64,000 nucleotides of DNA from a virus (taxonomy: Duplodnaviria; Heunggongvirae; Uroviricota; Caudoviricetes), in the IMG/VR virus record IMGVR_UViG_3300042485_001768; one strand, 5' to 3'. Shown in pieces: positions 8,562 to 62,142 of this stretch. The position numbers and the translations under genes were made by a program. Each line of letters starts with the position of its first letter. Position 1 is the stretch's first letter. The notes under the pieces are model-generated. The model saw only the letters and a program-made list of their open reading frames with translations, ran no database searches and was not told where the DNA came from.

Positions 8562-8601
8562 AAATTAACTACATAGTATATAATAGTAAAAATATTTATA
8601 G

Positions 8602-9465: not shown

Positions 9466-9512
9466 GTTCTTAAAAGCACAATAAATAAAGTAACTGAATT
9501 TTATAGGAGATT

Positions 9513-24999: not shown

Positions 25000-25036
25000 T
25001 GTAGTAGACCTTATAAATAAAACAACACGGTCTACC

Positions 25037-25453: not shown

Positions 25454-25518
25454 AGCATTTAGTGGCGATGTACCTGACTTGTAATCAGGAGAGGATGGTT
25501 CAATTCCGTCTGGGAGCT
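25446..25518 (+). tRNA. tRNA-Thr (anticodon UGU)
   Basis: Manual fold: acceptor GCTCCTA/TGGGAGC with one G-U. D-arm GCAT/ATGT. Anticodon stem CCTGA/TCAGG with loop CTTGTAA (U33, UGU, A37). Variable AGAG. T-arm GATGG-TTCAATT-CCGTC. Discriminator T. Overlaps the HNH stop codon. Confidence 0.8.
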
Positions 25519-25940: not shown

Positions 25941-25997
25941 CTATTGCGGATTTTTAAGTGAATAAATAAAACATAATAGAAATCTTAGTATAATAAA

Positions 25998-38245: not shown

Positions 38246-38249
38246 ATTT

Positions 38250-38726: not shown

Positions 38727-39195
38727 ATGTGTAATGTTGTGTGGAATTCCTACTTGTGGGAAGTCCACATATGTTAAAAAATTACAATCTTTAAACTATT
38801 GGAAAGATGCTGTAGTATTATCTACCGACAATTATATTGAGAAGCAGGCACAAAGGATGGGTCTGACTTATAATCAAATTTTTGATGATGTGATTGATGA
38901 TGCAACTCGGGAACTTGAACTTGAGTTCAATATGGCAAAGGACAAGGGAAAAGACATCATTTGGGATCAGACAAACTTATCAATTAAGTCCAGAAAGAAA
39001 AAACTTTCTAAACTTCCTTCCTATTACAGGAGAGAGGCGGTATACTTTGAAATAACATTGGAGGAAGCACTAAAACGAAATGAATGCCGTGAAGGCAAAT
39101 TCATTCCCAAAAGTATTCTTCATAGAATGTACCATCAGTTTGAATTTCCAACCTTAGAAGAGGGATTTGATTATGTTGAAAAAATTAAAGTTTAA
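38719..39195 (+). CDS. P-loop polynucleotide kinase-like protein (Pnk kinase-domain-like)
   Basis: Walker A MLCGIPTCGKST follows the ATG at 38719 (MPECVML...), which overlaps the HNH stop. The ORF track's 38692 start would overlap HNH further. About 158 aa with a kinase-like D..TN layout. Confidence 0.6.
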   Translation: MPECVMLCGIPTCGKSTYVKKLQSLNYWKDAVVLSTDNYIEKQAQRMGLTYNQIFDDVIDDATRELELEFNMAKDKGKDIIWDQTNLSIKSRKKKLSKLPSYYRREAVYFEITLEEALKRNECREGKFIPKSILHRMYHQFEFPTLEEGFDYVEKIKV

Positions 39196-39400
39196 ATCTC
39201 CATACAATCATCATTTTGAATATACTAGCGATATTGAACGTATCGTAAAAATCTTTGCCGATCGTGGATATGAGATTTCACATCAAGATGCTGTTCATGC
39301 TTGGGAAGAATTTTCTGACAGTATGTGTGCAGGTTGGATGTGCTTAGGTGAAGATGATGAAGTCTTTCAAGACGCATTTTATTATTTTGAGGAAGTTTGA
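39167..39400 (+). CDS. hypothetical small protein
   Basis: 77 aa ORF between the kinase and phosphatase genes. Confidence 0.3.
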   Translation: MIMLKKLKFKSPYNHHFEYTSDIERIVKIFADRGYEISHQDAVHAWEEFSDSMCAGWMCLGEDDEVFQDAFYYFEEV

Positions 39401-39864
39401 TGGCAGAAAAAAAGAAAAATTGTTTTATATTTGACTTAGATGGAACGATTTGTAATGTAAGTCATCGTAGACAATATGTTGTAACCAAACCACGTAACTG
39501 GGATGCTTGGAACAAAGGTCTCATTAATGATGTACCTAACGTAGCAGTTCAAAAGGTATTCCAAGCACTTCGCAATGCTAATGATTACGATACTGATTTG
39601 ATTATTGTTTCTGGTCGCTCAGACGATTATAAAGAACAAACGGTCAAGTGGTTGACTGATAATGAAATCTTTTACGATGAAATTTATATGAGAAAGTATA
39701 AAGATCATCGGGATGATGCTGTTGTTAAAGCAGAAATTGCTGACGAAATTGAAAAAACTCACCAAATTCTTGGTGTGTTTGATGACCGTCAGAGGGTTGT
39801 GAATATGTGGATTGAGCGTGGTATCTGGGTGTTCGACGTTGGGCAAGGTAAGGGCAATTTTTGA
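39397..39864 (+). CDS. HAD-family phosphatase (Pnk 3'-phosphatase-domain-like)
   Basis: 155 aa. FIFDLDGTI (DxDGT motif I), IVSGRS (motif II), and GVFDDR.RVVNMW (motif III/IV-like). Confidence 0.65.
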   Translation: MMAEKKKNCFIFDLDGTICNVSHRRQYVVTKPRNWDAWNKGLINDVPNVAVQKVFQALRNANDYDTDLIIVSGRSDDYKEQTVKWLTDNEIFYDEIYMRKYKDHRDDAVVKAEIADEIEKTHQILGVFDDRQRVVNMWIERGIWVFDVGQGKGNF

Positions 39865-39929
39865 ACTGGCACATACAATCCCACATCTGAGTTTTTTTAA
39901 CCTATAATCATCTTGTACGAAAATTAACA

Positions 39930-40217
39930 ATGAGTTTTTCCAAAACTGTTTCCGTTTTCGCTGCACTTGCAAGTATTTTTGCTGCTGGAGCTACTGGTTG
40001 GAAACTTGCAAATTCCCAACAAGAAGTTCCTTTGAATCCATTAGACCAAAAAGTAATGGAGTTGGAAAAAAAGATTGAAGAAGTAACAACTGAAAAACCA
40101 ATTGAGCAAGTGGTACAACCACAAGTAGAATTGCAACCTAAACCAACTATACCTCCAGTACCACCACTACCCCCGCTTCCAGCACCTACAGAGGACACAA
40201 ATGAACAAACTCCGTAA
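39930..40217 (+). CDS. small secreted/membrane-anchored Pro-rich protein
   Basis: 95 aa with a signal-anchor (VSVFAALASIFAAGA) and C-terminal PTIPPVPPLPPLPAPT. Confidence 0.4.
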   Translation: MSFSKTVSVFAALASIFAAGATGWKLANSQQEVPLNPLDQKVMELEKKIEEVTTEKPIEQVVQPQVELQPKPTIPPVPPLPPLPAPTEDTNEQTP

Positions 40218-41244
40218 ACTTGCTTCCATCAAACCTATCACCTATATCAAACCGATTGAAGGTGCTGATGCTATTGAGTGTGCTATTGTTGATGGTGGTT
40301 GGCCTGTAGTTGTCAAAAAAGGTGAGTATAAGGTTGGGGATATTGCCATCTACCTTGAGATTGATAGTTGGGTGCCCCACAAACTTGCTCCATTCCTTAG
40401 TAAGGGTCAAGAACCCCGTGAGTATAATGGTGTAAAGGGTGAGCGTCTTCGTACTGTTAAACTTCGTGGTCAAGTTAGTCAGGGTCTTCTGCTGCCGATT
40501 GAACTTACGTTCTGGCGTGATATTGGCACGGACCTTACAGAATCTCTGGGTATTCAGAAGTGGGAACCGCCCATCCCTGCTCAACTTCAGGGTACGATGA
40601 AGGGTAACTTCCCACACTTCATTCCTAAAACTGATCAAGAGCGTTGCCAAAATCTTCGTAAAGACATCTTTGAGACTCATAAAGAGGAGATTTATGAAGT
40701 CACCGTCAAACTTGATGGTAGTAGCACCACTATCTATGTCAAAGATGGTGAGGTTGGTGTATGTTCGCGGAATATTGACCTCATTGAAACTGAGGGCAAT
40801 AGTTTCTGGAAAGCAGCACGGGAGCAGAATATTATCGAACCTCTTCTTGAATTGTGTAAAGAAAAGGGTGAAGAATATGCTATTCAAGGTGAATTGATTG
40901 GTGAAGGTATTCAGGGTAATCCTGAAAAAATCAAAGGTCAACGATTCTATTTGTTTGATATTTACAGTATTACCTGTGGTGAATATTTTAAAGCAAATGT
41001 TCGATATAGTATTCTCGATAAACTAAAGATGCTTGGTGCTGATATTGAGCACGTTCCTATTGTTGATGTTGATGTTCGTGTTGCTCAAGCATACGACAGT
41101 ATTGATGACCTTCTTGAGTTTGCTGAGGGTCCATCGTTGAATCCTCAGACCAAACGTGAAGGTCTGGTCTTCAAATCGTGGGAAAGTGACTTTACTTTTA
41201 AAGCAATTTCTAACTCTTATCTCCTAAAGCATAAAGACCGATGA
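40201..41244 (+). CDS. second ATP-dependent RNA/polynucleotide ligase (KxDG nucleotidyltransferase with N-terminal OB-like domain; DraRnl/NgrRnl Rnl5-like)
   Basis: 347 aa. Motif I VTVKLDGSSTTIY. The KxDG motif is preceded by a ~150-aa N-terminal domain rather than followed by an OB domain, as in the Rnl5 family. Higher GC than surroundings. Confidence 0.55.
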   Translation: MNKLRKLASIKPITYIKPIEGADAIECAIVDGGWPVVVKKGEYKVGDIAIYLEIDSWVPHKLAPFLSKGQEPREYNGVKGERLRTVKLRGQVSQGLLLPIELTFWRDIGTDLTESLGIQKWEPPIPAQLQGTMKGNFPHFIPKTDQERCQNLRKDIFETHKEEIYEVTVKLDGSSTTIYVKDGEVGVCSRNIDLIETEGNSFWKAAREQNIIEPLLELCKEKGEEYAIQGELIGEGIQGNPEKIKGQRFYLFDIYSITCGEYFKANVRYSILDKLKMLGADIEHVPIVDVDVRVAQAYDSIDDLLEFAEGPSLNPQTKREGLVFKSWESDFTFKAISNSYLLKHKDR

Positions 41245-42041
41245 AAGTAAAAGTTGTATCCGATTTACATTTAGAATGTTGTGAATACGGTCACGGTGTT
41301 CCTGACCTTGGAGAGGGAGAAGTCTTAATTCTTGGTGGTGATATTCTCTGTGCTCGACACTTCAAAAAAGACGGAAACCTTCACAAGGTTTATACCGACT
41401 TCTTGAAGAAGTGTGCCGACAACTTCATGCACGTTCTGTATATCGCAGGAAATCATGAAGCATATGGATACAACTATGAAGGAACTTGGAATGTTCTCAA
41501 AGAAAACCTTCCCAATGGTATTCATCTGATGGAAGATAGTGTAGTGAAGATTGCGGACTGGGTTTTTATTGGTTCGACTTTTTGGACTGATTTCCGCAAT
41601 GGAAATGCCCTGGAAATGATGGAAGCAGCACAGTGTATGAATGATTATAAGACCATTCGCATTACTCCAAAGTATCGCAAGATGAATCCTGATGATACTT
41701 ATGCCTTTCATAACAAATCAAAGCAATTTCTACTGGATCAGTTAGAACTTTTTAAAAATCAAAAAATTTGGGTTCTCACGCACCATGCACCATCTTATCA
41801 ATCAGTTCATGAGCAGTATAAAACAAGTGGTATTGCGAATGGTGCATATGTCAGCGATCTTGATGATTTTATTTTAGAACATCCAGAGATTAGAATTTGG
41901 TCTCATGGACATACACATAACTCATTTGATTACAAAATTGGTGATTGTAGAGTTGTCTGTAATCCCAGAGGGTACTATAATGGATATAATAATTCTGGTT
42001 TGAATTTAGATTTTGATCCAAATTTTGAAATTGAGTTATGA
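41241..42041 (+). CDS. calcineurin-like metallophosphoesterase
   Basis: 266 aa. Motifs VVSDLH, GGDI, AGNHE, THHAP and SHGHTH. Confidence 0.75.
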   Translation: MKVKVVSDLHLECCEYGHGVPDLGEGEVLILGGDILCARHFKKDGNLHKVYTDFLKKCADNFMHVLYIAGNHEAYGYNYEGTWNVLKENLPNGIHLMEDSVVKIADWVFIGSTFWTDFRNGNALEMMEAAQCMNDYKTIRITPKYRKMNPDDTYAFHNKSKQFLLDQLELFKNQKIWVLTHHAPSYQSVHEQYKTSGIANGAYVSDLDDFILEHPEIRIWSHGHTHNSFDYKIGDCRVVCNPRGYYNGYNNSGLNLDFDPNFEIEL

Positions 42042-42235: not shown

Positions 42236-42395
42236 TACTGCTAGATTTCCTTATCCAAATTTCCCATTTAGATTAGAATACGAAGAAAACAAAGTTAAAA
42301 GAGTTTGTCATTTTGAGTGTAAAGAACATCTCAATAAATATTTGGAACGTCATAAACTTAAAAAGAATAAAGTTACAATCGAAACTCGTAAATGA
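42189..42395 (+). CDS. hypothetical small protein
   Basis: 68 aa ORF with a CHFEC motif. Confidence 0.25.
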   Translation: MRHPKINFMVEQKMIDTARFPYPNFPFRLEYEENKVKRVCHFECKEHLNKYLERHKLKKNKVTIETRK

Positions 42396-43225
42396 AAATA
42401 TTTAAAGTCCCTCACATAGAATTACATGTAACGCATACTTGCAATTTTAGTTGTGAAGGATGTTCTCATTATTCTAATCATGGACATTCTGGGTCTTTAA
42501 CTTTAAAAGAATGTGATGAATGGTTGTATTCTTGGAGTAGAAGATTACAACCAGAACTATTCACTATACTTGGTGGTGAGCCAACTCTTAATAAAAATTT
42601 GATTGATATAATTTATCTGGTTCGGATGATGTGGCCAGATACTGCAACTGCTATTGATCTTGTATCAAATGCTAGTTTTTTACATACACATCCAAATTTA
42701 CCGCAGGCATTATTGGATACTGACAGTACTTTAGCAATATCTATTCATAGTAAAGTACATGCTGGATATGTAAATAAATTTAAAAAAGGTTATAGATTGA
42801 CAAAAGAATGGAGAAAGCAATACGGAATTAATTTAGAATTTTGGGATTTTACCACAGATACCTGGACTCCTCAATATAATGGATTTGGGAATAATATGCT
42901 TCCCTATGAAGATAATAATCCAAGAAAGAGTTGGGAGAAGTGTCTATCTAAAAAAGCTCTACAAATACATGAGGGTAAATTGTGGAAATGTCCACCATTG
43001 GCATATTTACCAATGCAAGCAAAAAAATATAATCTTGACAAAAAATGGGATCCTTATTTAAAATATAAACCATTAGATTCGGATTGTTCTGATCAAGAAC
43101 TTGAAGAATTTTTAAATAAAGAAGATGAATGTTTTTGTTCTATGTGCCCTGCAAATATGGATAATCCTTATAAAAAAAATGATCCAACTCTTCCAGTAAG
43201 TTATTGGGAGAAGTTAAATTCATGA
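42392..43225 (+). CDS. radical SAM enzyme
   Basis: 277 aa. HVTHTCNFSCEGCSHY is a CxxxCxxC 4Fe-4S/SAM cluster motif near the N-terminus. GGEPTLN is a glycine-rich SAM motif. Confidence 0.7.
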   Translation: MKIFKVPHIELHVTHTCNFSCEGCSHYSNHGHSGSLTLKECDEWLYSWSRRLQPELFTILGGEPTLNKNLIDIIYLVRMMWPDTATAIDLVSNASFLHTHPNLPQALLDTDSTLAISIHSKVHAGYVNKFKKGYRLTKEWRKQYGINLEFWDFTTDTWTPQYNGFGNNMLPYEDNNPRKSWEKCLSKKALQIHEGKLWKCPPLAYLPMQAKKYNLDKKWDPYLKYKPLDSDCSDQELEEFLNKEDECFCSMCPANMDNPYKKNDPTLPVSYWEKLNS

Positions 43226-44646
43226 TTACCTGGGGAATATCATCAGAGAGTCATAATGCTGCACTTTCTGTATTTGTTAATGATAGTCTAGTCTTCGCAA
43301 GCGAAAGTGAAAGATTCAGTGGTATAAAAAATGATGCTTATTTAAATAATGGCATTATTGACTATGCACTAAAGTTTGGAAAACCAGAATTGGTATGCTG
43401 GTATGAGAATCCATATAAGAAAACGTTTAGACAACTTCTTGCAGGTCAAGGATGGATTCAGAACGTCAAAAAGTATGTTGATGTTCCAATCAAGTATTAT
43501 GACCATCACTATACTCATGCTTGTGCTGGTTACTTTACCAGTCAGTTTGACGAGTGTTGTGTGGTGGTTATTGATGCTATAGGAGAATTCCAAACACTTA
43601 CTATCTGGGAAGCAAGAGGTAATAAATTAAAACTTAAATTTCAACGTAAATATCCACACAGCGTTGGACTTTGGTATTCTGCAATGACACAAAGGTGTGG
43701 ATTAAAACCAAATGAAGAAGAGTATATCCTCATGGGCATGTCTGCTTATGGGGATAAAACACGTTATGAAGATGATATCTATAAAGATTTCATAGGATTT
43801 AGAACAGCAACCTTTAAAAAGAATTTACATAAAGGATGTGTTGATTGGAGACCAGATATTAAAAACACTTTTGATATCGCTGCTGCAACTCAAAACATTT
43901 ATGAAACAATTTTTAGAGATATTATGCAAGTAGCATCCAATAAAGTAAAAAGTAAAAATTTAGTTCTAATGGGTGGATGTGCGTTAAATTGTGTTGCAAA
44001 TCCAATTGCATATTATTATTTTGACAATTTATGGATTATGCCTGCACCTGGAGATAATGGGTCTGCCATTGGTTCTGTGCTTGCACATAAAAAGAAACAT
44101 ATTGATTGGCATGGACCTTATCTTGGATATTATATTAAATCAGTTGCATCAAACGAAGAAATTGTTAACCACTTAATGGATTATGGTCTTTGTGGAGTTG
44201 CAAGAGGTTGTGCAGAGTTTGGTCCTAGGGCACTGGGGAATCGTAGTTTATTTGCAGACCCTAGAGATCCACAAATTAAATCAATGGTCAACAATATTAA
44301 ACAAAGACAACAGTTTAGGCCATTTGCACCAGTAATTATGGAAGAATATGTACACGATTACTTTAGAATGCCTACAAATTCTTCACCATACATGCAATAT
44401 GCTGTAAAATGTAGATATTCTAAAAAGTTTCCAGCAATTGTTCACATAGATAAAACAAGTAGAGTTCAAACTGTTAATAGACAACAAAATACAGAACTTT
44501 ATGATCTTTTAAAGATGTGGAATGAAAAAACAGGTTGTCCTATGTTATTGAATACTAGTTTGAATATTAAAGGGAAACCGATGGTAAATGATGAAAAAGA
44601 TTGTAAAGAATGGGAAGAAACTTATGGGGTTAAAATATTCTCATGA
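43204..44646 (+). CDS. carbamoyltransferase (NodU/CmcH/TobZ family)
   Basis: 480 aa. N-terminal domain IKYYDHHYTHACAGYFTSQFDECCVVVIDAIGE matches the carbamoyltransferase N-domain HH..HA..A...S.F..A.V..DG.GE signature. C-terminal domain present. Confidence 0.7.
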   Translation: MGEVKFMITWGISSESHNAALSVFVNDSLVFASESERFSGIKNDAYLNNGIIDYALKFGKPELVCWYENPYKKTFRQLLAGQGWIQNVKKYVDVPIKYYDHHYTHACAGYFTSQFDECCVVVIDAIGEFQTLTIWEARGNKLKLKFQRKYPHSVGLWYSAMTQRCGLKPNEEEYILMGMSAYGDKTRYEDDIYKDFIGFRTATFKKNLHKGCVDWRPDIKNTFDIAAATQNIYETIFRDIMQVASNKVKSKNLVLMGGCALNCVANPIAYYYFDNLWIMPAPGDNGSAIGSVLAHKKKHIDWHGPYLGYYIKSVASNEEIVNHLMDYGLCGVARGCAEFGPRALGNRSLFADPRDPQIKSMVNNIKQRQQFRPFAPVIMEEYVHDYFRMPTNSSPYMQYAVKCRYSKKFPAIVHIDKTSRVQTVNRQQNTELYDLLKMWNEKTGCPMLLNTSLNIKGKPMVNDEKDCKEWEETYGVKIFS

Positions 44647-45380
44647 ATATTATAGATAATTTAAACAATAAAAACTTTTTTCCTATTGATAAACCAAATA
44701 ACAAATTTTGGTATGACCAAGATACAAAAGAACGATATATTCATAATTTAAAAGTTCAACCAGAAGAATGGCATTATAGAGATAAAATAGTTTATTATTT
44801 GACAAATTCTTTTGGATATAGAACTAAGCCATTTAAAGATATTGATTGGAGAAAATGTATTGTTTTATTTGGGTGTTCTTACATTTACGGTGTTGGTAGT
44901 GCAGAAGATGAAACTGTAACTGGATATTTGGAACAAATAACTGGAATTCCTGTAATTAATATGGGAGCACCTGGATCTTCACCAACCTTTTCTTTACATA
45001 ATTCTGGAATTTTGAGTGCAAAATATCCAAATCCAAAAGCAGTTGTTTATGGTTGGTCTTCTCAATATAGATGTCCTTTTTATACTAAAAATGAAGTTAT
45101 TCATTGTGGTAATTGGTTAAAAGATTCTAAAAAAATGGGAGAATCGTGGAATAGTAATGAAGAACATCCTGCAGTAAATTTAAAATTATCATCTATTATT
45201 TCTAAAGAAATGTGGAATAATAGAACAAAATATTATGAATTTACATTCTTTAAGACAGTTTCGGACGTTTTAAATTGTGATTATATAAAACAAGTTGATT
45301 ATGCAAGAGATTTGGGACATTCTGGAAAAGAAACTAATAAAATTGCTGCTGAAACTATTGCTAAAAATTTGAACTTGTGA
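44643..45380 (+). CDS. SGNH/GDSL-hydrolase-like protein (paralog A)
   Basis: 245 aa. VLFGCSYIYGVGSAED...ITGIPVINMGAPGSS...VVYGWSS is collinear with ORF 45836..46642. Confidence 0.45.
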   Translation: MNIIDNLNNKNFFPIDKPNNKFWYDQDTKERYIHNLKVQPEEWHYRDKIVYYLTNSFGYRTKPFKDIDWRKCIVLFGCSYIYGVGSAEDETVTGYLEQITGIPVINMGAPGSSPTFSLHNSGILSAKYPNPKAVVYGWSSQYRCPFYTKNEVIHCGNWLKDSKKMGESWNSNEEHPAVNLKLSSIISKEMWNNRTKYYEFTFFKTVSDVLNCDYIKQVDYARDLGHSGKETNKIAAETIAKNLNL

Positions 45381-47661: not shown

Positions 47662-47706
47662 AATTACAATAAATAAGTAAATAAAAGAAAATAATATCGT
47701 TATAAA

Positions 47707-53412: not shown

Positions 53413-54231
53413 ATGTCTACTACAAAAATTGCTCTGGGTGCTGGTGCTGCTGTTCTTGCTCTAGTGCTTACTGCTGGTCAATTCACCACCATCAACACTG
53501 GAGAAAATGGTCTCTACGTTGGATTTGATGGTCAGGTGAAGAATGAAGTGCTGACGCCTGGTATTAAATACGATGGTTTCGGTTCTATCAAAGTCTTCAA
53601 CACTCGTAAGATTACGGTACAATCTAACGATTTGACTCCGAAGACTAAAGACAACACCATCATGAAAGATATGGATGTTGTGGTTACTTACAGCATTGCT
53701 CCCACTTCACTCTATAGCTTCTATACTGGTTACGATATGAGTAACCATGGTGTCAGTGAGAATGGACAGATTGAACTGATGTCCACGTTTATCAAGCGTC
53801 TGATTACGTCTGCCGTGAACCAATCGGTTGACGAATATGCTGCCCTGGATGTGAACAGCAGTCTGGATAAGATTCAAGATACCATCAAACAGAATCTGAA
53901 CCTTGCCCTGGAGAAGAACAACCTTGCTGGTAAGATTGATATTGAATCCGTTGTGGTTGTAAAAGCAGACTTGCCTGAGGATCTGGTTGCTGCTGTGAAT
54001 CGTGTGGTGACTGCTCAATCTGCTGAAAAGGAGCAAATTGTGAAGAACCGTACTGCTGAACTGAAAGCAAACGAGAACAAGTCTCTTGCTTCTACTATCA
54101 CTCCTCAGTACCTTGAGTACCAACGTAATGAAATCATGAAGGAAGCATTCAAGAATGGTGGCATTGAAAAGATGATCATTGTGAATGGTTCTTCGATGAA
54201 CTTCCTGCCTGGTGGTCTGACTGGTAAGTGA
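53413..54231 (+). CDS. SPFH/band-7 (prohibitin/stomatin-like) domain protein
   Basis: 272 aa. N-terminal TM helix (IALGAGAAVLALVLTAG), then a band-7-like core and a C-terminal coiled region (AEKEQIVKNRTAELKANE). Higher GC than neighbours. Confidence 0.55.
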   Translation: MSTTKIALGAGAAVLALVLTAGQFTTINTGENGLYVGFDGQVKNEVLTPGIKYDGFGSIKVFNTRKITVQSNDLTPKTKDNTIMKDMDVVVTYSIAPTSLYSFYTGYDMSNHGVSENGQIELMSTFIKRLITSAVNQSVDEYAALDVNSSLDKIQDTIKQNLNLALEKNNLAGKIDIESVVVVKADLPEDLVAAVNRVVTAQSAEKEQIVKNRTAELKANENKSLASTITPQYLEYQRNEIMKEAFKNGGIEKMIIVNGSSMNFLPGGLTGK

Positions 54232-54233
54232 TT

Positions 54234-54401
54234 ATGATTGAACTCCTCGCTAGTGCTATTATTGCTTCAAGCAATCAATCTGAGCAAATCAACCGATTCT
54301 GTGCTTATGTTGTTGGTATTCCATATGCTAGTGATAACTTCACCGACGAGGAGTGGGGGAGGTTTGAATACTGTAGGGAACACTTAAAAATTACTGATTA
54401 A
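54234..54401 (+). CDS. hypothetical small protein (55 aa)
   Basis: Hand-translated MIELLASAIIASSNQSEQINRFCAYVVGIPY... ORF overlapping the previous stop. Confidence 0.25.
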   Translation: MIELLASAIIASSNQSEQINRFCAYVVGIPYASDNFTDEEWGRFEYCREHLKITD

Positions 54402-54408
54402 CTTTATT

Positions 54409-54440
54409 GGGGAGAATGAACTTCTCCCCCTTTATCTTAT
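54409..54440 (+). terminator. rho-independent terminator-like hairpin
   Basis: GGGGAGAA-TGAAC-TTCTCCCC followed by CTTTATCTTAT. Confidence 0.5.
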
Positions 54441-55107
54441 GTACGAATTTAATGATTTTACTTTTAAATGTTGTGTTTGGTATTATGCCAAAAGATTGGG
54501 AGTAATTGATGCTTTAACCTGGGAAATAATCATTGCCAAATCAACAAATAGTCAATGGATTCCTGGGGATCATTTTATGGCAGATGTTGTAAATTCAGAA
54601 TATCTCTGCAACGTCAAGTCATTAAAAAAGAAATTTGCTAAAGGCGATAAACAATCTTTAACTTACGTTCAATGTAGGGCACCAATTACCAAAGACAGGA
54701 CATTATTGGACGATGAGTTGGGAAATGAAATTATTTCAACTTTAATTAAAAAAAAGCAAGAAAGTTTTGAACAATTTTCTTGTAATGTAATGAAGGATTA
54801 TATGATTCAACATTGCAGAGATGGTGAAAAATATTTTGCTAGAGTATTCTTGTGTGACCATCCAAATTTTAATGAGTATGATTTGCAATGGAAAGATGGT
54901 GAAGGTAAATTAGAAGGTTCAAAAACTTGGTTTTTAAAACGTGCATATGGAGATTCTAAGCACGGTCAAAACTGCGTTCACATTAAAAAGGTTTTTGAAA
55001 AATCTATGTTAATTGCGGATATTGTTGTTGAATGTCCAGATGAACACAATGTTTCCAATGAATTAATTGTTGAAGAATATATGAAATATCACCAGGGGGA
55101 CGGATGA
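54439..55107 (+). CDS. hypothetical protein
   Basis: 222 aa, Cys-rich (several CxxC-like pairs). Confidence 0.4.
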   Translation: MYEFNDFTFKCCVWYYAKRLGVIDALTWEIIIAKSTNSQWIPGDHFMADVVNSEYLCNVKSLKKKFAKGDKQSLTYVQCRAPITKDRTLLDDELGNEIISTLIKKKQESFEQFSCNVMKDYMIQHCRDGEKYFARVFLCDHPNFNEYDLQWKDGEGKLEGSKTWFLKRAYGDSKHGQNCVHIKKVFEKSMLIADIVVECPDEHNVSNELIVEEYMKYHQGDG

Positions 55108-55176
55108 ACCACTGTCCACTGGAACGAACCAACCTGAGAACTTTGCCCTATAATAACTTCAGTTCAAACAAAGGAC

Positions 55177-55632
55177 ATGACCACCACCTTCGCTGAATAC
55201 TCTGCTTCTGCTGAGGCAAGGAAGGACATTGCAACTGCTGTTCTGGGTCATACGTATGCTCTCTGTGAGGCACTGCGTCAGAACTACATTGACTATTCCA
55301 TTCGTAGTCATGAACGTTCTTTACAGCGTCTTGAGGGTAATACTGACACTGGTATTAAATATCACAAAGAACAGATTGCTAAACTCAAGCAAGGAACTTG
55401 TGATTACGATTTCTACCCCGAGTCTGGTAGAAAGTATCATAAGGTAATCATGAATGCCAATGGTAATAAGTCCGTTCATTGCTTCATCGACAAGAAAACT
55501 GGTGAAGTCTACAAGTCTGCATCATGGAAGGCACCTGCCAAGGGTGTGCGATATGATCTGCGTATCATCAATCAGCGTGAGTGGTTGCTTCAAAATGCTG
55601 ATTGGGCAGGTAGTTATCTTTATATGCGTTGA
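55177..55632 (+). CDS. hypothetical protein, HCF(V/I)DK..G.VYK family (paralog of 51717..52130)
   Basis: 151 aa with shared C-terminal motifs (see ORF 51717). Higher GC. Confidence 0.4.
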   Translation: MTTTFAEYSASAEARKDIATAVLGHTYALCEALRQNYIDYSIRSHERSLQRLEGNTDTGIKYHKEQIAKLKQGTCDYDFYPESGRKYHKVIMNANGNKSVHCFIDKKTGEVYKSASWKAPAKGVRYDLRIINQREWLLQNADWAGSYLYMR

Positions 55633-55675
55633 ATATGACAAAAACTGACAAACTTATCTTCATCTCTTCGTTTAT

Positions 55676-56149
55676 TTGGTTTCTTCACTGGGGCACATGT
55701 ATTACCTCGAAACTTCTGGTTATGGCTATCGAAAGCGAGTCTGTGAGAGCGTTACCGATTGGTTTATGAATCGGTATATGCCAAGACATCACATTGGTCT
55801 TCGCATTGTCCACAAAGGACTTAAACGAGAATTTGTCTATGGTTATTGTGACGTTGATGGTGAAATTAAACGTCCTCGTGACTTTTTGATTGAACTACAA
55901 TCGCATATGGACCTTGAGACCTATACAAAAACTTTAATTCATGAGTTAGTTCATGTTCGTCAATGGGTTTTTGGTGATCTCCGTGATAAAAGGGGAAAGA
56001 TGTATTATGGTTCCGTAAAAGTGGAAGAACTAGATTATGAAGATCAACCACATGAGATTGAAGCGAGAGAGCAGGAAGAAACTTTGTATATTACCTATTT
56101 GATAGAGACTGGGCAGATGAAATTTAAATCATCCAAATCTAGACTTTGA
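55676..56149 (+). CDS. putative HExxH zinc-metallopeptidase-like protein
   Basis: 157 aa with LIHELVHVRQW (HExxH), consistent with a short gluzincin-type helix. Confidence 0.35.
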   Translation: MVSSLGHMYYLETSGYGYRKRVCESVTDWFMNRYMPRHHIGLRIVHKGLKREFVYGYCDVDGEIKRPRDFLIELQSHMDLETYTKTLIHELVHVRQWVFGDLRDKRGKMYYGSVKVEELDYEDQPHEIEAREQEETLYITYLIETGQMKFKSSKSRL

Positions 56150-56154
56150 ACTAT

Positions 56155-56181
56155 AAGGGTGGAATATTCCACCCTTTTTTG
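56155..56181 (+). terminator. rho-independent terminator
   Basis: GGGTGGAAT-ATTCCACCC perfect palindrome followed by TTTTTT. Confidence 0.7.
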
Positions 56182-56217
56182 TTAAATAATTAATGAATAT
56201 TAGTAGTAGATGTATAA

Positions 56218-57162
56218 ATGGAGAAGATAATTTATTGTATTATCAATAAAAATATGAACTCCGAAGATACTGCTTTTGGGAATAGGATGTATATATGGAC
56301 TCAACTTTATTATGTGTCTTATAGAACTAATTTTGAGTATAAAATTGCGGTTCAAAAAGAGAAATGGCCAGAATTAAAATTTTTAAATTTACCAAATACC
56401 ATTGCATTAAAAGAAGAATATTTTTGTAAAAATGAAAAAGTATATAAAATTAGTGAAAGTCACCTTAAACTAATAATTCATAAAAATAATATTGAGTATT
56501 TAAAAACTAATAATTATTGGTATCTAGATGAATGGTTGATCTATGAAGGTCAATATGATAAACTCAATCTTCCAAATCCATATTCTTTGATAAAATTTAA
56601 AAATCCATCTATAAATGATATTTTGAGTGAATATTTCAAATCTTTTGTTTCTATTCACATTAGAAGATATCACGGAACATATTATACTGAAGATGATTTG
56701 AGTGAAATGCCTTTAAATTTAAGGGAACAATATTTAAAAGAATCTTATTTTCCAACAACATTAACACATTACACTTATATAAAAGATGCTGTTTATTTTA
56801 AAATAATAGAAAAATTAATAAATTCCAATGAAAATGTAAAAATTTACATTAGCACCGATTTACCTTTAAAATTTTATAAACACTATAAAACAAGATACTT
56901 TAAAAAAAATATAAAAGATAAGTATGATTACTACGAAAAATTTAAGAACATTTTAAAGCAATGTTTTACTGATGATTATATTGATAATAATAAGAAAATA
57001 GTTGAAGATTTATTAGACTTTTTTGTTATTGCTTATTCTAAATTTATCATTATGCCAAATTACTCTACTTGGAGCAGAATTGCTAAAAAAGTCAAAAATA
57101 CTAAATGTCTCAACTTACCTATTTCCGAGGTTGCACTAGAACTTTTACAATTTAGGATATGA
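56218..57162 (+). CDS. glycosyltransferase family 11 (alpha-1,2-fucosyltransferase)-like protein, diverged paralog
   Basis: 314 aa, extremely AT/Lys/Asn/Tyr-rich. SIHIRRYHGTYY is a degenerate HxRRGD motif I. C-terminal IIMPNYSTWSRIAKK resembles the GT11 SNSTFSWW motif. Confidence 0.4.
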   Translation: MEKIIYCIINKNMNSEDTAFGNRMYIWTQLYYVSYRTNFEYKIAVQKEKWPELKFLNLPNTIALKEEYFCKNEKVYKISESHLKLIIHKNNIEYLKTNNYWYLDEWLIYEGQYDKLNLPNPYSLIKFKNPSINDILSEYFKSFVSIHIRRYHGTYYTEDDLSEMPLNLREQYLKESYFPTTLTHYTYIKDAVYFKIIEKLINSNENVKIYISTDLPLKFYKHYKTRYFKKNIKDKYDYYEKFKNILKQCFTDDYIDNNKKIVEDLLDFFVIAYSKFIIMPNYSTWSRIAKKVKNTKCLNLPISEVALELLQFRI

Positions 57163-57298
57163 CACTTAAAAAAGTGACCATTGAACCTTTAAATAGGTGT
57201 TAAAGATAGTATACTATGAGAGGTTCGATAGAAATGAACCCATTTATTGACAAACCCCAACATTTAACCTAGACTAAAAAAGTTCTTTAAATCAAAAA

Positions 57299-57532
57299 AT
57301 GAAGTATCTCTACATCGTTGACTATTGGATTCCATTTCCTTCCTCTGAATATGGTGGTCTCTTTAACGTAATTGCTGAAAGCGATACTGAGTGCCATGAT
57401 ATTCTTTTAGATTGGAGAGAAGAATATGATAGTGAATATGATAGTCGTATTATGGAACGAGTTGTTTCTGCACCTAAGTTCTTACTCGCAGAAAATCAAG
57501 AGTCCCGAATTGTAGAAAGTTTTACCACTTGA
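57299..57532 (+). CDS. hypothetical small protein
   Basis: 77 aa ORF. Confidence 0.3.
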   Translation: MKYLYIVDYWIPFPSSEYGGLFNVIAESDTECHDILLDWREEYDSEYDSRIMERVVSAPKFLLAENQESRIVESFTT

Positions 57533-57694
57533 TATGACACACCATAACGTCTCTCACGCAAACAACATTCTTAAAGAGTTGAAAGAACAACATCAAAAAA
57601 GAATTGAATATCTAGAAAGTAAAATTGAAGACATGCAAACTGAGATTGAAATTCTCAACACCTATCAAAATAGAATTTACGACTGTTAATCATT

Positions 57695-57892
57695 ATGAAT
57701 CTTGAATTAAATGAAATCCGAGAAGATTGTATTACAAATGTAGAAAACTATTTTTGTAGTAGGATTATTGATCATATGGATTGTGGCAATCTCTTTGATG
57801 CCCAAGCAATTCACGAAGAATTTGTGATTGATGAAGAAGATATTCCCAAAAATTGGTTGTTTTTGAACGACCTTACTGGTGATGATTATTGA
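57695..57892 (+). CDS. hypothetical small protein
   Basis: 65 aa ORF. Confidence 0.25.
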   Translation: MNLELNEIREDCITNVENYFCSRIIDHMDCGNLFDAQAIHEEFVIDEEDIPKNWLFLNDLTGDDY

Positions 57893-58184
57893 AGAAGGAA
57901 AATTGGTCAAATACAAAGATTATGTTGGAAAAATCAAATTTATTACAACAGAATATTTGACTATATGTAATCCTGGTTCTCGTTGGGACATTTGTGTTGT
58001 TGTTTATTCTACAGATTTTCATTTAATTCATGAAGTACCAAGTAACGTACAAAAATCCTAAAAATAAAGAGGGATTTTACTCAAACCAAAAAGCAGTATT
58101 TTTAGATGTGTCTGATGCAATTATGTGGCAAGAACATGTTAAAAAACAAGGGGCAATTGATATTGAAATGGTAGTTGACTTCTC

Positions 58185-58376
58185 ATGAAACTCATTCAAA
58201 CTTGTGGTTCTTATAATCCAGATGATGGGTACTCTATTTGTATTGCCCTTAGTGAAAGACATGTCATTACATTAGATGGACTGAATGAAGAAGATATGTT
58301 AGAATTAAAGTCTTGCATTGATTGCATGATTTTTGATCTATATGAAGAAGAAGAACTTTATGAAGGAGAATTCTAA
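58185..58376 (+). CDS. hypothetical small protein
   Basis: 63 aa ORF. Confidence 0.25.
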   Translation: MKLIQTCGSYNPDDGYSICIALSERHVITLDGLNEEDMLELKSCIDCMIFDLYEEEELYEGEF

Positions 58377-58584
58377 GTCCTTTTGGAGATGGTGGGCAAA
58401 GGCATTAGGGGAGAAAGCTTCTAAATGCGATCGAGAGTCGGATACTGTTGCACGTATCCGAACTTTTATTTTTTTAACTTACTTGATTACTAACTTTTTT
58501 ATTGTGGCTGGAGTTATCAGACATTGGAATGATTCACCTATAGAAATTAAAATTGAAGTTCTTGATGACCCCAAAATGATCTAA
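58333..58584 (+). CDS. small membrane protein
   Basis: 83 aa with a hydrophobic helix (IFLTYLITNFFIVAGVI). Confidence 0.3.
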   Translation: MIYMKKKNFMKENSKSFWRWWAKALGEKASKCDRESDTVARIRTFIFLTYLITNFFIVAGVIRHWNDSPIEIKIEVLDDPKMI

Positions 58585-58627
58585 CAATAGTCATTATTAA
58601 ATAAATAAATTATCGTTTTATATTAAT

Positions 58628-59728
58628 ATGATTAAAATAAGATTAGAGCACAATGCAACTGGAAATGGATTGGGTTATCAAATATCTTCATATGTTTTGC
58701 TTAAAAGTCTTGCAAAACACTTTGGGTATGAATACGGTACTGATGAGTTCGAATTCTTAAATTTAAGATCAACTTTTGAGGGTGTCTCCTTTGATGGTAC
58801 AACAAGACCTGACACAGAATACGATAAGTTTCTTGAATTTTCGGATAATGAGTCTTTTGATACTATTGTAAGTAAAGGTCTTGAAGATGAAAGTTTGATA
58901 TTTGGATATCCAAGTCCAACAAATTTTTACAAAAAGGAATACTTTGAAGAAGTAAAAAAAGATTTGGTATTTCGTAAAATTATAAAAGATAAGTGTTCAG
59001 AATTTGTTAATAAATTTGAAGGACAAGAAATCATATCCTTACACATAAGAAGGGGAGATTTTTTAGATCCAATTAGCGGAATGTTTGTTTGTGGTGATGA
59101 TTATTATCAGAACGCATTAAAACTTCTTCCAGAAGATGCAAAAGTTTTTATATTCACAAATGATAAAGAATATGTAAAAAATAATCCACTCTATCAAGAT
59201 GACAGATTTGTATTGATAACTGATATCTACAATGACAACCAACCAATTAATTGTGATTATGGCCAATTAATTGATAAAATGCTTGATTTTAGTGGTCATT
59301 CTAGATTTAATTATAAGTTTGTTATCTCTCAAATTGCAGCAAAAGAAGTACGTACCATAAAATCTATTGTCGATGAACTTCATCCAAAATATTTGGAAAA
59401 ACTAAAAAATAAACTATATAATCATTCATTTGATTTGTGTTTGATGACAATGTGTGATTATCACATTTCAGCAAATAGCACATTTGGTATGTGGGGAACG
59501 ACATTATCTAATAGTAAAAAAGTCATATATCCAAAGTATTGGATGCATGGACATGTACCAAATCCTTTGGAACTTGAGAGAAAATTGGATCTTGGTGATT
59601 ATGACCAGACTAAAGATATTGGTGGAGAATTCATGCGTGACCAACAAAAGAATTCTATTGGTATTGAAAATCCAGACCAAATTATAAGTCAACTAGAAAG
59701 TGAAATAAATACTATAAAGGGTGTATAG
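58628..59728 (+). CDS. glycosyltransferase family 11 alpha-1,2-fucosyltransferase-like protein
   Basis: 366 aa. ISLHIRRGDFLDP matches the GT11 HxRRGD(Y/F) motif I. DYHISANSTFGMWGTTLSN matches the GT11 C-terminal SNSTFSWW motif. Confidence 0.65.
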   Translation: MIKIRLEHNATGNGLGYQISSYVLLKSLAKHFGYEYGTDEFEFLNLRSTFEGVSFDGTTRPDTEYDKFLEFSDNESFDTIVSKGLEDESLIFGYPSPTNFYKKEYFEEVKKDLVFRKIIKDKCSEFVNKFEGQEIISLHIRRGDFLDPISGMFVCGDDYYQNALKLLPEDAKVFIFTNDKEYVKNNPLYQDDRFVLITDIYNDNQPINCDYGQLIDKMLDFSGHSRFNYKFVISQIAAKEVRTIKSIVDELHPKYLEKLKNKLYNHSFDLCLMTMCDYHISANSTFGMWGTTLSNSKKVIYPKYWMHGHVPNPLELERKLDLGDYDQTKDIGGEFMRDQQKNSIGIENPDQIISQLESEINTIKGV

Positions 59729-59939
59729 AATCATGTCAGAAAGAGCAGAACGTTTATCTAATCTTTATTTAAATACTTTGGCTCTCACTTCTAGAAGAAC
59801 CAGGTTAAAAAAACATCAAGTTGGTGCTAAAGCACTTGCAACCTTTTTGTCTGCAGTTATTGATGAATGTGAAACAATGACTATGAAAACCAGTAAGGAA
59901 ATTTATCAGATTATAGATGAGCTTGAAAACATTGATTAA
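59721..59939 (+). CDS. hypothetical small protein
   Basis: 72 aa ORF. Confidence 0.3.
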   Translation: MYRIMSERAERLSNLYLNTLALTSRRTRLKKHQVGAKALATFLSAVIDECETMTMKTSKEIYQIIDELENID

Positions 59940-60215
59940 TCAGACAGTGTGCCTGGTGTCACAGACAAACCCAACGAAGCAAGTCTAGCCCCTATACTGT
60001 GGGAGTAATCGACGGAGCACTCCTACGATGTCTCTCTCCTTCCCATCTAGGTCGCATCATACCGCAGCACTGTACGATGCCTGTAAACTAATTGTAGACA
60101 CATATAACAATACAGATCTTCTTGATCTTTATGAGGAAAAAGGTCTTGGTGATGCTTATCAATTATCATCAACATGTCGGGAAATCATCAATCTTATTGT
60201 TGAGGGGTCTATCAA

Positions 60216-60392
60216 ATGAAACCCTATCCTCTTGGTTTGGACAATCCCTACGTTATCCGTGGTATTATTGGTAGTTCGCGGTGGGGATTGTATCGTCGTG
60301 AACCGTTTGAGAAAGTTGCTGAATTTGCTTCTCAAACACAAGCATACGATGCCCGTCGTGCTATTTTAAAAATTCAGGGTTATGATTCATGA
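60216..60392 (+). CDS. hypothetical small protein (58 aa)
   Basis: Hand-translated MKPYPLGLDNPYVIRGIIGSSRWGLYRREPFEKV... ORF overlapping the upstream stop (ATGA). Confidence 0.25.
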   Translation: MKPYPLGLDNPYVIRGIIGSSRWGLYRREPFEKVAEFASQTQAYDARRAILKIQGYDS

Positions 60393-60510
60393 AGTATTTT
60401 ATTGGTTTTGGACTTTTTGCAATGGTTGGATGGAATGTTTTTTTGATTCAACGCGATCAAAGTCTTTTCAAAACATATGATGCTTGCACACAATTTACAT
60501 ATCATCCTGA

Positions 60511-60708
60511 TTGCCCTTACAACAAATGAAACCTAAATTTCGCACTGTATTAGAAATGGCACTTGAAGAAGGTGTTCGATTTGGTTGGAACCGTGCCCAT
60601 AAACACAATTCTAATCCTGATGTAGATGCTGCTGCTGATGCCATTGTGTCGGAGATTATGAACTCTCTTGACACTTGGTTTGAGATGGAGGATGGAGTTT
60701 ACAAATGA
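60511..60708 (+). CDS. hypothetical small protein
   Basis: 65 aa ORF. Confidence 0.3.
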   Translation: MPLQQMKPKFRTVLEMALEEGVRFGWNRAHKHNSNPDVDAAADAIVSEIMNSLDTWFEMEDGVYK

Positions 60709-61304
60709 AATATAAAGAATATAATGAACTTGAAGAAAAAGATATTGATTTGATTTGTGATTATCTTTTGAATCCTTCAACTAATGCAAATCAAGATAAG
60801 CAACGAAGAAAAGAACTTTACGATTTAAATATTGTAAAAAAAACAAAAACCAATGAAACAAATCAGAAGTATTTGAGTGGTCCTCTTGGTGAAGCGATTG
60901 TTCGATTATACTTTGATAAAATTGATAAAATTTTTATTCCTAAACCACCAGAAGTAAAATATTTTAATTCACAAAAAGAATTGATTGTTCTTCGTCCTGA
61001 TGGTTTGCATGTTAGGGGAGAGTATAACATTTGGATTGAATCTAAAATGAGGTCATATTTTTCTGATGGAACAGCACATGAAAAAATTCATGGTGTCCCA
61101 GAAAAATATTGTCATATGCATGGAAAACTAATGCTATTTCTTCTTGCTGATGATGAGCATAAGTATAATAAAAATTGGACTAAACTTCGTCGCGGAGAAA
61201 TCTTACCACAGAATAAATGTGAAGAATATCATATGTTGGGAGATTTAGAGGTTCTTGACTCTATTGTTCTTGGAACAGAAGTTGCAAAAGTTTTAAAAGC
61301 ATAA
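60705..61304 (+). CDS. hypothetical protein with possible PD-(D/E)XK nuclease core
   Basis: 199 aa. VLRPDGLHVRGEYNIWIESKMR fits a (P)D...E.K nuclease core. Sits immediately upstream of dam. Confidence 0.3.
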   Translation: MKYKEYNELEEKDIDLICDYLLNPSTNANQDKQRRKELYDLNIVKKTKTNETNQKYLSGPLGEAIVRLYFDKIDKIFIPKPPEVKYFNSQKELIVLRPDGLHVRGEYNIWIESKMRSYFSDGTAHEKIHGVPEKYCHMHGKLMLFLLADDEHKYNKNWTKLRRGEILPQNKCEEYHMLGDLEVLDSIVLGTEVAKVLKA

Positions 61305-61329: not shown

Positions 61330-62142
61330 ATGAACAAATCCTTTCTCAAATGGGCAGGAAATAAGTATCGGGTTCTTCAACATATTTTACCCGAAATTCA
61401 ATTCCCCAATCAATTTATTGAACCTTTTATTGGGTCTGCCTCTGTAACTCTTAATGTTTGTGCAGATACTTATGTGATTAATGATTTTAATAATGATTTA
61501 ATTTCATTATATTCTTTTATACTTCACGATAATTCATTTATTGATGATTGTGAAAATTATTTTTATAATAAAAACACTGAGGAATTATATTATTCTTGTC
61601 GTGAGGAGTTTAATACAACCGATGACAAAAGACTTAAAGCAATGTTGTTTGTCTATTTGAATCGTCATTGTTTCAATGGACTTACACGTTATAATAAATC
61701 TGGTCAGTTTAATGTTCCTTATGGAAAATATAAGTCTCTTTATTTTCCAAAAAAAGAGATGGAAAACTTTAAGACAAATTTAAATCAAAGAAGTATTCAG
61801 TTATTTTCTGGTGATTTTGCAAATCCGAAAATTTATACTAATCTAACTGAGGATACAGTTGTTTATTTTGACCCCCCATATCTACCACTGACGAATACCG
61901 CAAATTTTAGTGATTATGCAACTGGTGGATTCTCTTATGATGACCAAGTAAGACTTAAAAATTTGGCATTAGGTCTACAATCTCAGGGAGTAAAAGTTAT
62001 TATTAGTAATCATGATACTGAGGTGTCTAGAGAATTATATTCTTCTGCTTCTAGAATTCACAGTTTTAATGTTGGTAGATTTATTGCAGCAAAAGGAGTG
62101 TCAAGGCAACCCGTTAAAGAAATACTTGCTGTTTTTTGTTGA
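61330..62142 (+). CDS. dam: Dam-type DNA N6-adenine methyltransferase (alpha class)
   Basis: 270 aa. LKWAGNKYRVL (motif X), EPFIGSASV (motif I FxGxG) and DPPY (motif IV) in alpha-class order, typical of T4/E. coli Dam. Confidence 0.85.
   Translation: MNKSFLKWAGNKYRVLQHILPEIQFPNQFIEPFIGSASVTLNVCADTYVINDFNNDLISLYSFILHDNSFIDDCENYFYNKNTEELYYSCREEFNTTDDKRLKAMLFVYLNRHCFNGLTRYNKSGQFNVPYGKYKSLYFPKKEMENFKTNLNQRSIQLFSGDFANPKIYTNLTEDTVVYFDPPYLPLTNTANFSDYATGGFSYDDQVRLKNLALGLQSQGVKVIISNHDTEVSRELYSSASRIHSFNVGRFIAAKGVSRQPVKEILAVFC

Follow-up and report, generated by a model that had tools for sequence, protein, structure and literature searches.

A GT11-family protein and a remote fucosyltransferase-superfamily relative encoded by an uncultured T4-like aquatic phage

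To better understand the glycosyltransferase (GT) genes of an uncultured phage, we analysed a stretch of 64,000 nucleotides (nt) from the IMG/VR virus record IMGVR_UViG_3300042485_001768, referred to here as the window, and focused on two open reading frames (ORFs), ORF1 and ORF2 (Table 1). A preliminary description had called them two GT11 (alpha-1,2-fucosyltransferase-like) genes. On profile and structure-prediction grounds, ORF2 is a true GT11-family protein. ORF1 has no GT11 match, and neither have 68 diverse members of its family; profile alignment and modelling place it instead as a remote homologue within the fucosyltransferase GT-B superfamily (GT11/23/37/65/68) and in no curated family. 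Motifs and models support both products being soluble, cytoplasmic GT-B glycosyltransferases with the nucleotide-sugar motif set of fucosyltransferases. ORF2 is a conserved, syntenic gene of the phage lineage, and ORF1 is an accessory cassette gene.

GT11 identity of ORF2 and superfamily membership of ORF1

ORF2 was found at the coordinates first proposed for it and carries both of the motifs reported there, HIRRGDF and ISANSTFGMWG. Its product matched the Pfam GT11 profile PF01531 at 50.1 bits, above the curated gathering cutoff of 23.9 (E = 3.1e-13), which bears out the GT11 assignment of this gene, and matched PHROG 2644 ("glycosyltransferase") at 3.4e-38. The motifs GLGYQ (residues 14-18), HIRRGDF (139-145), TND (177-179), and ISANSTFGMWG (279-289, with ANSTFGMWG at 281-289) follow the GT11 order, and the single departure is Tyr in place of Asn in the first. 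In hhalign comparisons with canonical GT11-like proteins of approximately 265 amino acids (aa), ORF2 aligned with 100% probability (E = 1e-103), pairing GLGYQ with GRLGNQ, HIRRGDF with HIRRGDY, FTND with FSDD, and, toward the C terminus, CDYHISANSTFGMWG with CDYHIIANSSFSWWG. The same alignment revealed a 65-residue insertion in ORF2 at about residues 200-264, plus additional C-terminal residues. An AlphaFold 2 (AF2) model with a predicted local distance difference test (pLDDT) score of 90.8 resolves the insertion as four helices (pLDDT, 85-97); in this model the helical insertion sits in the C-terminal (nucleotide-sugar) domain, followed by a short C-terminal tail. The model has the two-Rossmann-domain GT-B fold, and its best solved Foldseek matches were NodZ and FUT8 (E = 2.5e-7). 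No solved GT11 structure was among these matches, and a PDB sequence search with ORF2 returned no match. Some GT11 members use GDP-6-deoxyhexoses other than GDP-fucose.

The coordinates and the "degenerate" motifs first reported for ORF1 (HIRRYHG and NYSTWSRIA) were likewise present, and its start at 56218 is backed by a first β-strand conserved in homologues. ORF1 had no match to Pfam, PHROG, NCBIfam, or PADLOC models, and PADLOC defence-system models were not matched by ORF2 either. Against PF01531, ORF1 gave nothing even at E ≤ 10, and the profile was matched by 0 of 9 close and 0 of 68 diverse members of its family; among other Pfam models, the 68 gave two weak O-FucT matches and one weak NodZ match. 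The motifs FGN (residues 20-22), HIRRYHG (147-153), STD (212-214), and NYSTWSRIA (281-289) nevertheless occur in GT11 order, and the superfamily elements HxRR, (A/S)TD, and D...S are found in sequence with their Arg, Asp, and Ser conserved. Motif order thus follows GT11, but spacing does not, owing to approximately 28 extra residues after HIRR and approximately 28 before the last motif.

The relationship between the two proteins emerged with a larger ORF1 family. A word-indexed search found merely 10 ORF1 relatives; an exhaustive hidden Markov model (HMM) search found 218 clusters at E ≤ 1e-3, 158 of them at E ≤ 1e-10. In an alignment of 68 sequences, D267 is invariant, and D17, W27, E52, P59, H147, R149, R150, D190, D214, F269, and S283 are conserved in at least 90%. 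The profile built from this alignment matched the ORF2 subfamily in hhalign with 97.1% probability (E = 7e-11) over 261 columns spanning the N-terminal GN motif, HIRR, and the D..F...S.W region, whereas a 9-sequence alignment had recovered the N-terminal motif alone; the full-length relation was visible only after the family was enlarged. Against canonical short GT11-like proteins, merely 27-51 N-terminal columns aligned (probability, 52-91%). PDB matches of the small alignment to AcrIF14 and MxiA were spurious and were discarded.

Structure prediction points in the same direction. The ORF1 model (pLDDT, 84.8; predicted template modelling [TM] score, 0.85) returned FUT8, NodZ, AtFUT1, and POFUT1/2 as all of its top 50 PDB matches in Foldseek (E = 4e-7 to 3e-5; probability, 1.00), with modest TM-scores of 0.43-0.53. 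In a viral structure library, it matched giant-virus and cyanophage fucosyltransferase-like (viral alpha-1,2-FucT-like) proteins. Searched against the PDB, the 68-sequence profile reached FUT8 below threshold (E ~0.16) with consistent motifs, aligning IHIRR with VHVRR, YISTD with YLATDD, and LLD.F.LS...I....S with ILDIHFLS..FLVCTFSS. H147, R149, R150, D214, D267, and S283 thereby fall opposite the HVRR, ATDD, D, and S motif positions of FUT8, which are reported to be essential by mutagenesis (Ihara et al. 2007). Because the hhalign match extends over 261 columns at E = 7e-11 and fold matches reach E ~4e-7, the motif likeness of ORF1 is more than chance. Together, these results place the ORF1 family as an unannotated, apparently phage-borne sister family within the superfamily.

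TABLE 1 Features of the ORF1-ORF2 locus (window coordinates)
Feature	Position	Strand	Remarks
ORF1, unannotated fucosyltransferase-superfamily GT-B protein (predicted), 314 aa	56218..57162	+	AF2/Foldseek, hhalign
ORF2, GT11-family glycosyltransferase, long variant, 366 aa	58628..59728	+	Pfam, PHROG, hhalign, AF2
Presence/absence cassette with ORF1, 1.1 kb	56131..57242		Relative L001 has 46 bp instead
Intrinsic-terminator-like hairpin and T-run	56155..56176	+	9-bp stem with 5 GC pairs, then TTTTTGTT; directly upstream of ORF1
Sigma-70-type promoter-like site, TTGACA-17-TAGACT	57247..57275	+	Heads the small-ORF run and ORF2
Seven small co-directional ORFs, 51-83 aa, unknown function	57299..58584	+	Between ORF1 and ORF2, head-to-tail
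T4/cyanomyophage-type late-promoter core, AATAAATA	58600..58607	+	Ends 21 nt upstream of ORF2 ATG
68-aa ORF	59733..59939	+	A few bases after ORF2-type genes in all relatives examined
Band 7/SPFH (prohibitin-like) gene and DUF7717 gene	53413-55632	+	Upstream of locus

Conservation, mobility, and expression signals

The long GT11 form is common to approximately 100 metagenomic clusters at 33-60% identity, and the position of the gene is constant in relatives of 150-257 kb, after a DUF7717 gene and among small ORFs. Between ORF2 and its counterpart in the relative L011 (84% DNA identity), the proteins are 92% identical and the ratio of nonsynonymous to synonymous substitution rates (dN/dS) is 0.06. 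The 68-aa ORF downstream shares 41-46% identity with its positional counterparts in L020 (11142-11348) and L022 (11133-11336), its product is helical, and it had no PHROG or PADLOC match. It is preceded by an ATAAATA of its own (59705-59711) and may be a functional partner of ORF2.

ORF1 behaves differently. In L001, which is 97% identical to the window on both flanks, the cassette comprising the terminator, ORF1, and 80 bp downstream is replaced, while L002, L006, and L007 retain it. The ORF1 protein is 74% identical to its counterpart in L011, with a dN/dS of 0.18, and its dN (0.167, versus 0.043 for ORF2) corresponds to fourfold faster evolution. ORF1 is therefore under selection yet fast-evolving, and the two dN/dS values together argue that both genes are functional and under purifying selection. 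A related 257-kb phage, L013, encodes three ORF1-family paralogues (8001-9041, 9043-10170, and 16309-17041), including a tandem pair that is syntenic with ORF1, and the flanks examined lack an ORF2-type gene. We considered a 375-aa gene beside the ORF1 homologue in L013 as an ORF2 homologue, and hence as a trace of an ancestral adjacent pair, but it proved to be another ORF1-family paralogue. Co-occurrence of the two genes is not obligatory: in the flanks examined, L020 and L022 carry only the ORF2 type, and L013 only the ORF1 family.

Among 50,697 phage records, the only cultured phage with an ORF1 homologue is S-SCSM2R, where it is annotated as hypothetical. Ten sampled clusters of the family were all metagenomic, on contigs of ≤128 kb. 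A single scan with narrow patterns recovered two viral contigs and gave no ORF1-family match in 185,579 bacterial and archaeal genomes; given the narrowness of the patterns, absence of the family from cellular genomes is weakly supported. Distant members occur in marine T4-like phage contigs (L015, 1809-16300; L017, 798-6462), and their location inside phage sugar-metabolism clusters supports a carbohydrate role for the family. These clusters contain two GT7 (beta-4-GalT-like) proteins fused to laminin-G, radical SAM proteins, a DegT aminotransferase fragment, DUF6734, a methyltransferase, and UDP-glucose dehydrogenase, and form a sizeable phage glycan-synthesis island.

Base composition also separates the two genes. 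They had been described as lying in the most AT-rich part of the window, which has a mean guanine-plus-cytosine (GC) content of 33%. This is accurate for ORF1, whose GC content of 0.231 is the lowest of any gene in the window and which overlaps the lowest-GC 945-bp stretch of the entire 64 kb (starting at 56121; z = -2.8), but not for ORF2 (0.299, 16th percentile, unremarkable). The extreme codon usage attributed to the region is, for ORF1, a matter of amino acids: the protein is rich in K (12.4%), I (10.5%), Y (10.5%), and N (8.6%), and GC is depleted at the first two codon positions (0.283 and 0.225, versus means of 0.442 and 0.345), while GC at third positions (0.184) is typical for the phage (mean, 0.207). 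Its low GC content thus follows from protein composition, and we rejected foreign codon preference as the cause. The suggestion of a distinct origin accordingly finds no support in codon usage; it fits ORF1 by virtue of the clean 1.1-kb insertion/deletion and does not fit ORF2, given its conservation and synteny.

Expression signals distinguish the genes as well. Upstream of ORF1 we found neither a recognisable promoter of its own nor a late motif. The sigma-70-type site ahead of the small ORFs is one of 3 such sites in the window (0.51 expected) and is kept in L001 as TTGACA-17-TATACT. The core directly upstream of ORF2 resembles the T4/cyanomyophage late-promoter consensus NATAAATA (PMC2984593). 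Its heptamer, ATAAATA, occurs in the window 2.5 times less often than expected (16 copies versus 40.5, with more than 16 in every shuffle) and is the rarest of 21 seven-mers with this composition. For nine of the 16 copies, a start codon follows on the same strand at a distance of 10-60 nt, compared to 6.8% for the other 20 seven-mers (p = 2.4e-7), and the genes so preceded include those for head-closure, baseplate-hub, and long-tail-fibre proteins. Examples are the copies at 8593-8599 (minus strand), 9481-9487, 25962-25968, 42334-42340, 47669-47675, 58601-58607, and 59705-59711. The position of the motif at -27 relative to ORF2 is kept in L001 and L011 and also in the distant L020 and L021, where the ORF2-type proteins share just 40% identity and the DNA upstream is unrelated apart from this motif; L022 and L023 have CTAAATA in its place. 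At the sequence level, then, ORF2 has a T4-type late-promoter core shortly upstream of its start, and we infer that ORF2 is transcribed late, possibly with added read-through from the early-type promoter. ATAAATA may also be used as a late-gene predictor for this uncultured phage.

Proposed function and alternative acceptors

By analogy with characterised relatives, each enzyme would bind a GDP-activated 6-deoxyhexose, most likely host-made GDP-L-fucose, would hold it through the HxRR arginines within the inter-domain cleft, and would pass the sugar, with inversion, to a glycan acceptor that is already in place; donor, inversion of configuration, and glycan acceptor are all drawn from family knowledge. 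The preferred acceptor would be an envelope polysaccharide intermediate of the infected host (lipopolysaccharide [LPS], O-antigen, or exopolysaccharide), and the altered surface or debris of infected cells might then adsorb fewer other phages or less of the phage's own progeny. The GT11 enzymes characterised so far are all known to work in the synthesis of surface polysaccharides, with glycans or lipid-linked glycans as acceptors (CAZy GT11). We rank the host envelope first because of this precedent and because a cell-surface hypothesis has been published for the LPS-type genes of cyanomyophages (PMC1079782; PMC9602691; PMC12801897). The two roles first suggested for the genes, remodelling of the host surface and glycosylation of the virion, are the usual hypotheses. 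Even so, a fucosyltransferase-superfamily pair acting on host envelope intermediates is a tentative explanation, the leading one among several and short of an even chance.

Several observations weigh against it. ORF2 is immediately preceded by the conserved late-promoter-like motif, and late expression is a poor fit to superinfection exclusion; a virion-directed role fits at least equally well. No GDP-fucose synthesis genes were found in the 64-kb window, so the donor would have to be supplied by the host or through genes elsewhere in the genome. Neither ORF shows the layout of a polysaccharide cluster, in which nucleotide-sugar synthesis genes, further GTs, and a flippase or polymerase lie beside the GT: other genes of this kind were not found near ORF1 or ORF2 in the window, and each stands alone among small ORFs of unknown function. 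Finally, ORF1 keeps H-x-R-R but has lost the Gly-Asp of a complete HxRRGD motif, and with this replacement and its position below every curated GT profile, its donor could differ.

The late motif is an argument for a different acceptor, the virion itself. ORF2, and possibly ORF1, might be a late product that adds fucose to proteins of the capsid, tail, or fibres or to a glycan they already carry, which would change particle adsorption, stability, or recognition. The motif's fixed distance from ORF2, kept in L020 and L021 despite the divergence of protein and DNA, and the fact that ATAAATA otherwise marks structural genes in the window would both be expected if this were so. Protein O-fucosyltransferases belong to the superfamily and are among the fold matches of ORF1, and giant-virus fucosyltransferase-like proteins are among its closest viral fold matches. 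We know of no GT11 enzyme with a protein acceptor, however, nor of any report of virion glycosylation in T4-like phages. Precedents come from giant viruses and from mycobacteriophages; in the latter, glycosylation of virions by phage-encoded GTs is documented (Freeman et al. 2023, as cited in PMC12619734). ORF2 moreover lies in a hyperplastic small-ORF region outside the structural module and downstream of the sigma-70-like promoter, so that its expression may be early plus late, a "middle-like" pattern that has been described (PMC2984593), and ORF1 lacks a late motif altogether. On balance, we consider virion glycosylation somewhat unlikely, ranking it after the host envelope.

Sugars could instead be added to hydroxymethylated bases of the phage DNA as protection from restriction, as by the T4 alpha- and beta-glucosyltransferases. 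GT-B enzymes are known to glycosylate the DNA of T-even phages and of many further viruses (Pyle et al. 2024, cited in PMC12619734), such a role has been suggested for cyanophage GTs (PMC12801897), and a Dam methylase is encoded 1.6 kb downstream of the locus. The fold and profile matches are specific to fucosyltransferases, however, and not to enzymes like T4 AGT or BGT, and no dCMP/dUMP hydroxymethylase was found among the larger ORFs of the window, which covers 64 kb of a genome of approximately 246 kb. Phage DNA is therefore by far the least probable of the three acceptors, a very remote prospect. For ORF1 alone, it is also conceivable that the protein is no active fucosyltransferase, but uses another nucleotide sugar or is a non-catalytic, binding, or decaying paralogue, a dispensable moron. 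The HIRRYHG sequence where HxRRGD is expected, the lack of any curated GT profile match, the fourfold faster evolution, the loss from a 97%-identical relative, and the single hypothetical homologue in a cultured phage would all agree with this. A dN/dS of 0.18 signifies selection on the protein, though, the six residues that map to FUT8 motif positions are invariant or nearly so in 68 members, and the family has expanded to three paralogues in the 257-kb relative; we regard an inactive or repurposed ORF1 as improbable.

A bolder proposal, which we think rather unlikely, combines these elements: the long GT11 variant would be a late gene of an aquatic T4-like lineage of 150-257 kb that acts together with the 68-aa partner in fucosylating the virion, and ORF1 would belong to a GT family restricted to phages and new to CAZy and Pfam, diversifying by cassette gain and loss and by tandem duplication. 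If true, the ORF2 part of this proposal would describe the first virion glycosylation system in T4-like phages. The locus lends itself to experiments on these alternatives: the choice between host surface and virion can be decided by experiment in a GT11 subfamily that is marked by its own insertion and keeps its late-promoter signal, and the mobile ORF1 cassette provides natural plus and minus genotypes for comparison.

Genomic surroundings and comparison with known systems

The gene set of the window, with PhoH, gp59, and gp32, is that of a T4-like myovirus. Its tail genes encode a baseplate wedge, a tail-tube cap, a hub/lysozyme, and a long tail fibre of 1945 aa; head-closure, baseplate-hub, and tail-tube proteins, an Rnl1-type ligase, and two tRNAs are also encoded. 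Both ORF products recur in identical form on metagenomic contigs, the largest of 246.5 kb. A megablast search with positions 55000-61000 against the 50,697 phage records gave zero matches, which indicates that the phage has no close cultured relative, and the tail-tube cap has its best matches in Synechococcus and Prochlorococcus myophages at merely 31-47% identity. The phage is an uncultured T4-like aquatic myovirus of approximately 246 kb, for which a cyanobacterial host is plausible.

The neighbours of the GT locus are small ORFs without known function, DUF7717, a Band 7 protein, and the Dam methylase. DUF7717 paralogues recur shortly upstream of GT genes in all related phages examined. That only tiny ORFs separate the two GT genes, as first described, was confirmed; the seven are also called as genes in related contigs, where their presence varies. 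The one directly upstream of ORF2 (58333-58584, plus strand) contains a hydrophobic segment, IRTFIFLTYLITNFFIVAGVI, that is probably membrane-spanning, and a terminator-like hairpin (58438-58461) falls inside it.

Other features of the window lie farther from the locus; all are on the plus strand. A 199-aa ORF (60705-61304) with a weak Type II restriction-enzyme match (PADLOC REase_II, E = 5e-5) is directly followed by the Dam-type (MethyltransfD12) DNA methyltransferase gene (61330-62142); the pair is conserved in relatives and may be a phage-borne restriction-modification pair. In the region 42392-45380, a radical SAM gene (42392-43225) overlaps the start of a NodU/CmcH-type carbamoyltransferase gene (43204-44646), which is followed by a 245-aa ORF of unknown function. 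An ATAAATA stands at 42334, and these genes might form a small module that modifies a sugar, a nucleotide, or some other substrate. An RNA-repair-like module (37103-42041) comprises the Rnl1-type ligase, an HNH endonuclease (38250-38726), a P-loop kinase (38692-39195), a PNKP-type phosphatase (39397-39864), a PHA02142/Rnl-type ligase (40201-41244), and a metallophosphoesterase; the Pnkp kinase and phosphatase halves are split, with the HNH gene adjacent, and the local GC content is 0.38-0.42. A further HNH endonuclease ORF (25037-25453) lies between tRNA-Gly and tRNA-Thr in the region 24313-25518, its 3' end abutting or overlapping the tRNA-Thr gene at 25446, and two TATAAATA sites occur upstream of small ORFs in the same region.

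Phage-borne fucosyltransferases had been described as uncommon, an argument from rarity that fails on the records: by tblastn, homologues occur in 99 phage records, mostly of cyanomyophages, with 84 named Synechococcus phage and 6 Prochlorococcus phage, and many are annotated as GT11 or alpha-1,2-fucosyltransferase. Such genes also appear in the literature (PMC1079782, PMC9602691, and PMC12801897). P-SSM2 carries 24 "LPS" genes (PMC1079782); S-SCSM1 encodes POFUT-, alpha-1,2-FucT-, and NodZ-type genes together with GDP-fucose synthesis genes (PMC9602691); and S-SCSM2R encodes 13 GTs, two of them GT11 (PMC12801897). GT11 and related fucosyltransferase genes are thus common in T4-like cyanophages, and the present finding is real but largely ordinary; the locus does not overturn current understanding. 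In phage type, enzyme superfamily, and functional hypotheses, it resembles the LPS gene sets of P-SSM2 and S-SCSM1, from which it differs in having no nucleotide-sugar synthesis genes or further GTs beside ORF1 or ORF2 in the window. The phage itself is distant from cultured cyanomyophages, as the tail-tube cap indicates.

ORF2 shares with GT11 enzymes (bacterial FutC, WbsJ, and WbgL; mammalian FUT1/FUT2) and with the GT11 genes annotated in the cyanomyophages P-SSM2, S-SCSM1, S-SCSM2R, and ACG-2014f the motif order GLG(Y/N)Q, HxRRGD(F/Y), NS(T/S)F..WG and the predicted GT-B fold. Its identity to cyanophage GT11 proteins is 25-30% across roughly 80% of its length. It departs from the canonical form in being approximately 100 residues longer, with the helical insertion between the (T/S)xD strand and the D.CLMT helix and with its C-terminal tail, in the Tyr that replaces Asn of GLGNQ, and in standing alone, unlike GT11 genes in polysaccharide clusters. 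ORF1 falls below any GT11 profile threshold, and the best solved matches of its model are instead GT23 FUT8 and NodZ, GT37 AtFUT1, and GT65/GT68 POFUT1/2, although sequence matches to these enzymes remain sub-threshold and TM-scores modest. With FUT8, the family aligns IHIRR, YISTD, and D.F.LS...I....S.W to GVHVRR, YLATDD, and DIHFLS..FLVCTFSS. In contrast to the eukaryotic fucosyltransferases, ORF1 has the insertion of approximately 28 residues after HIRR and is without SH3, coiled-coil, or EGF/TSR-binding features. Three shared peptide motifs define the superfamily of alpha-2-, alpha-6-, and protein-O-fucosyltransferases (Martinez-Duncker et al. 2003, as cited in PMC9602691).

The novelty is modest and twofold. 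ORF2 is a long variant of GT11, conserved in its lineage, with a late-promoter signal and a small ORF as its constant partner; ORF1 belongs to an unannotated, apparently phage-borne sister family within the fucosyltransferase superfamily and has the behaviour of a mobile cassette. Since 2005, the fucosyltransferase-type genes of aquatic T4-like phages have appeared in lists of "LPS genes", with acceptors assigned by hypothesis. Against that background, more than 200 clusters that have carried only hypothetical annotations can now be placed in the fucosyltransferase superfamily, and their annotation can be improved.

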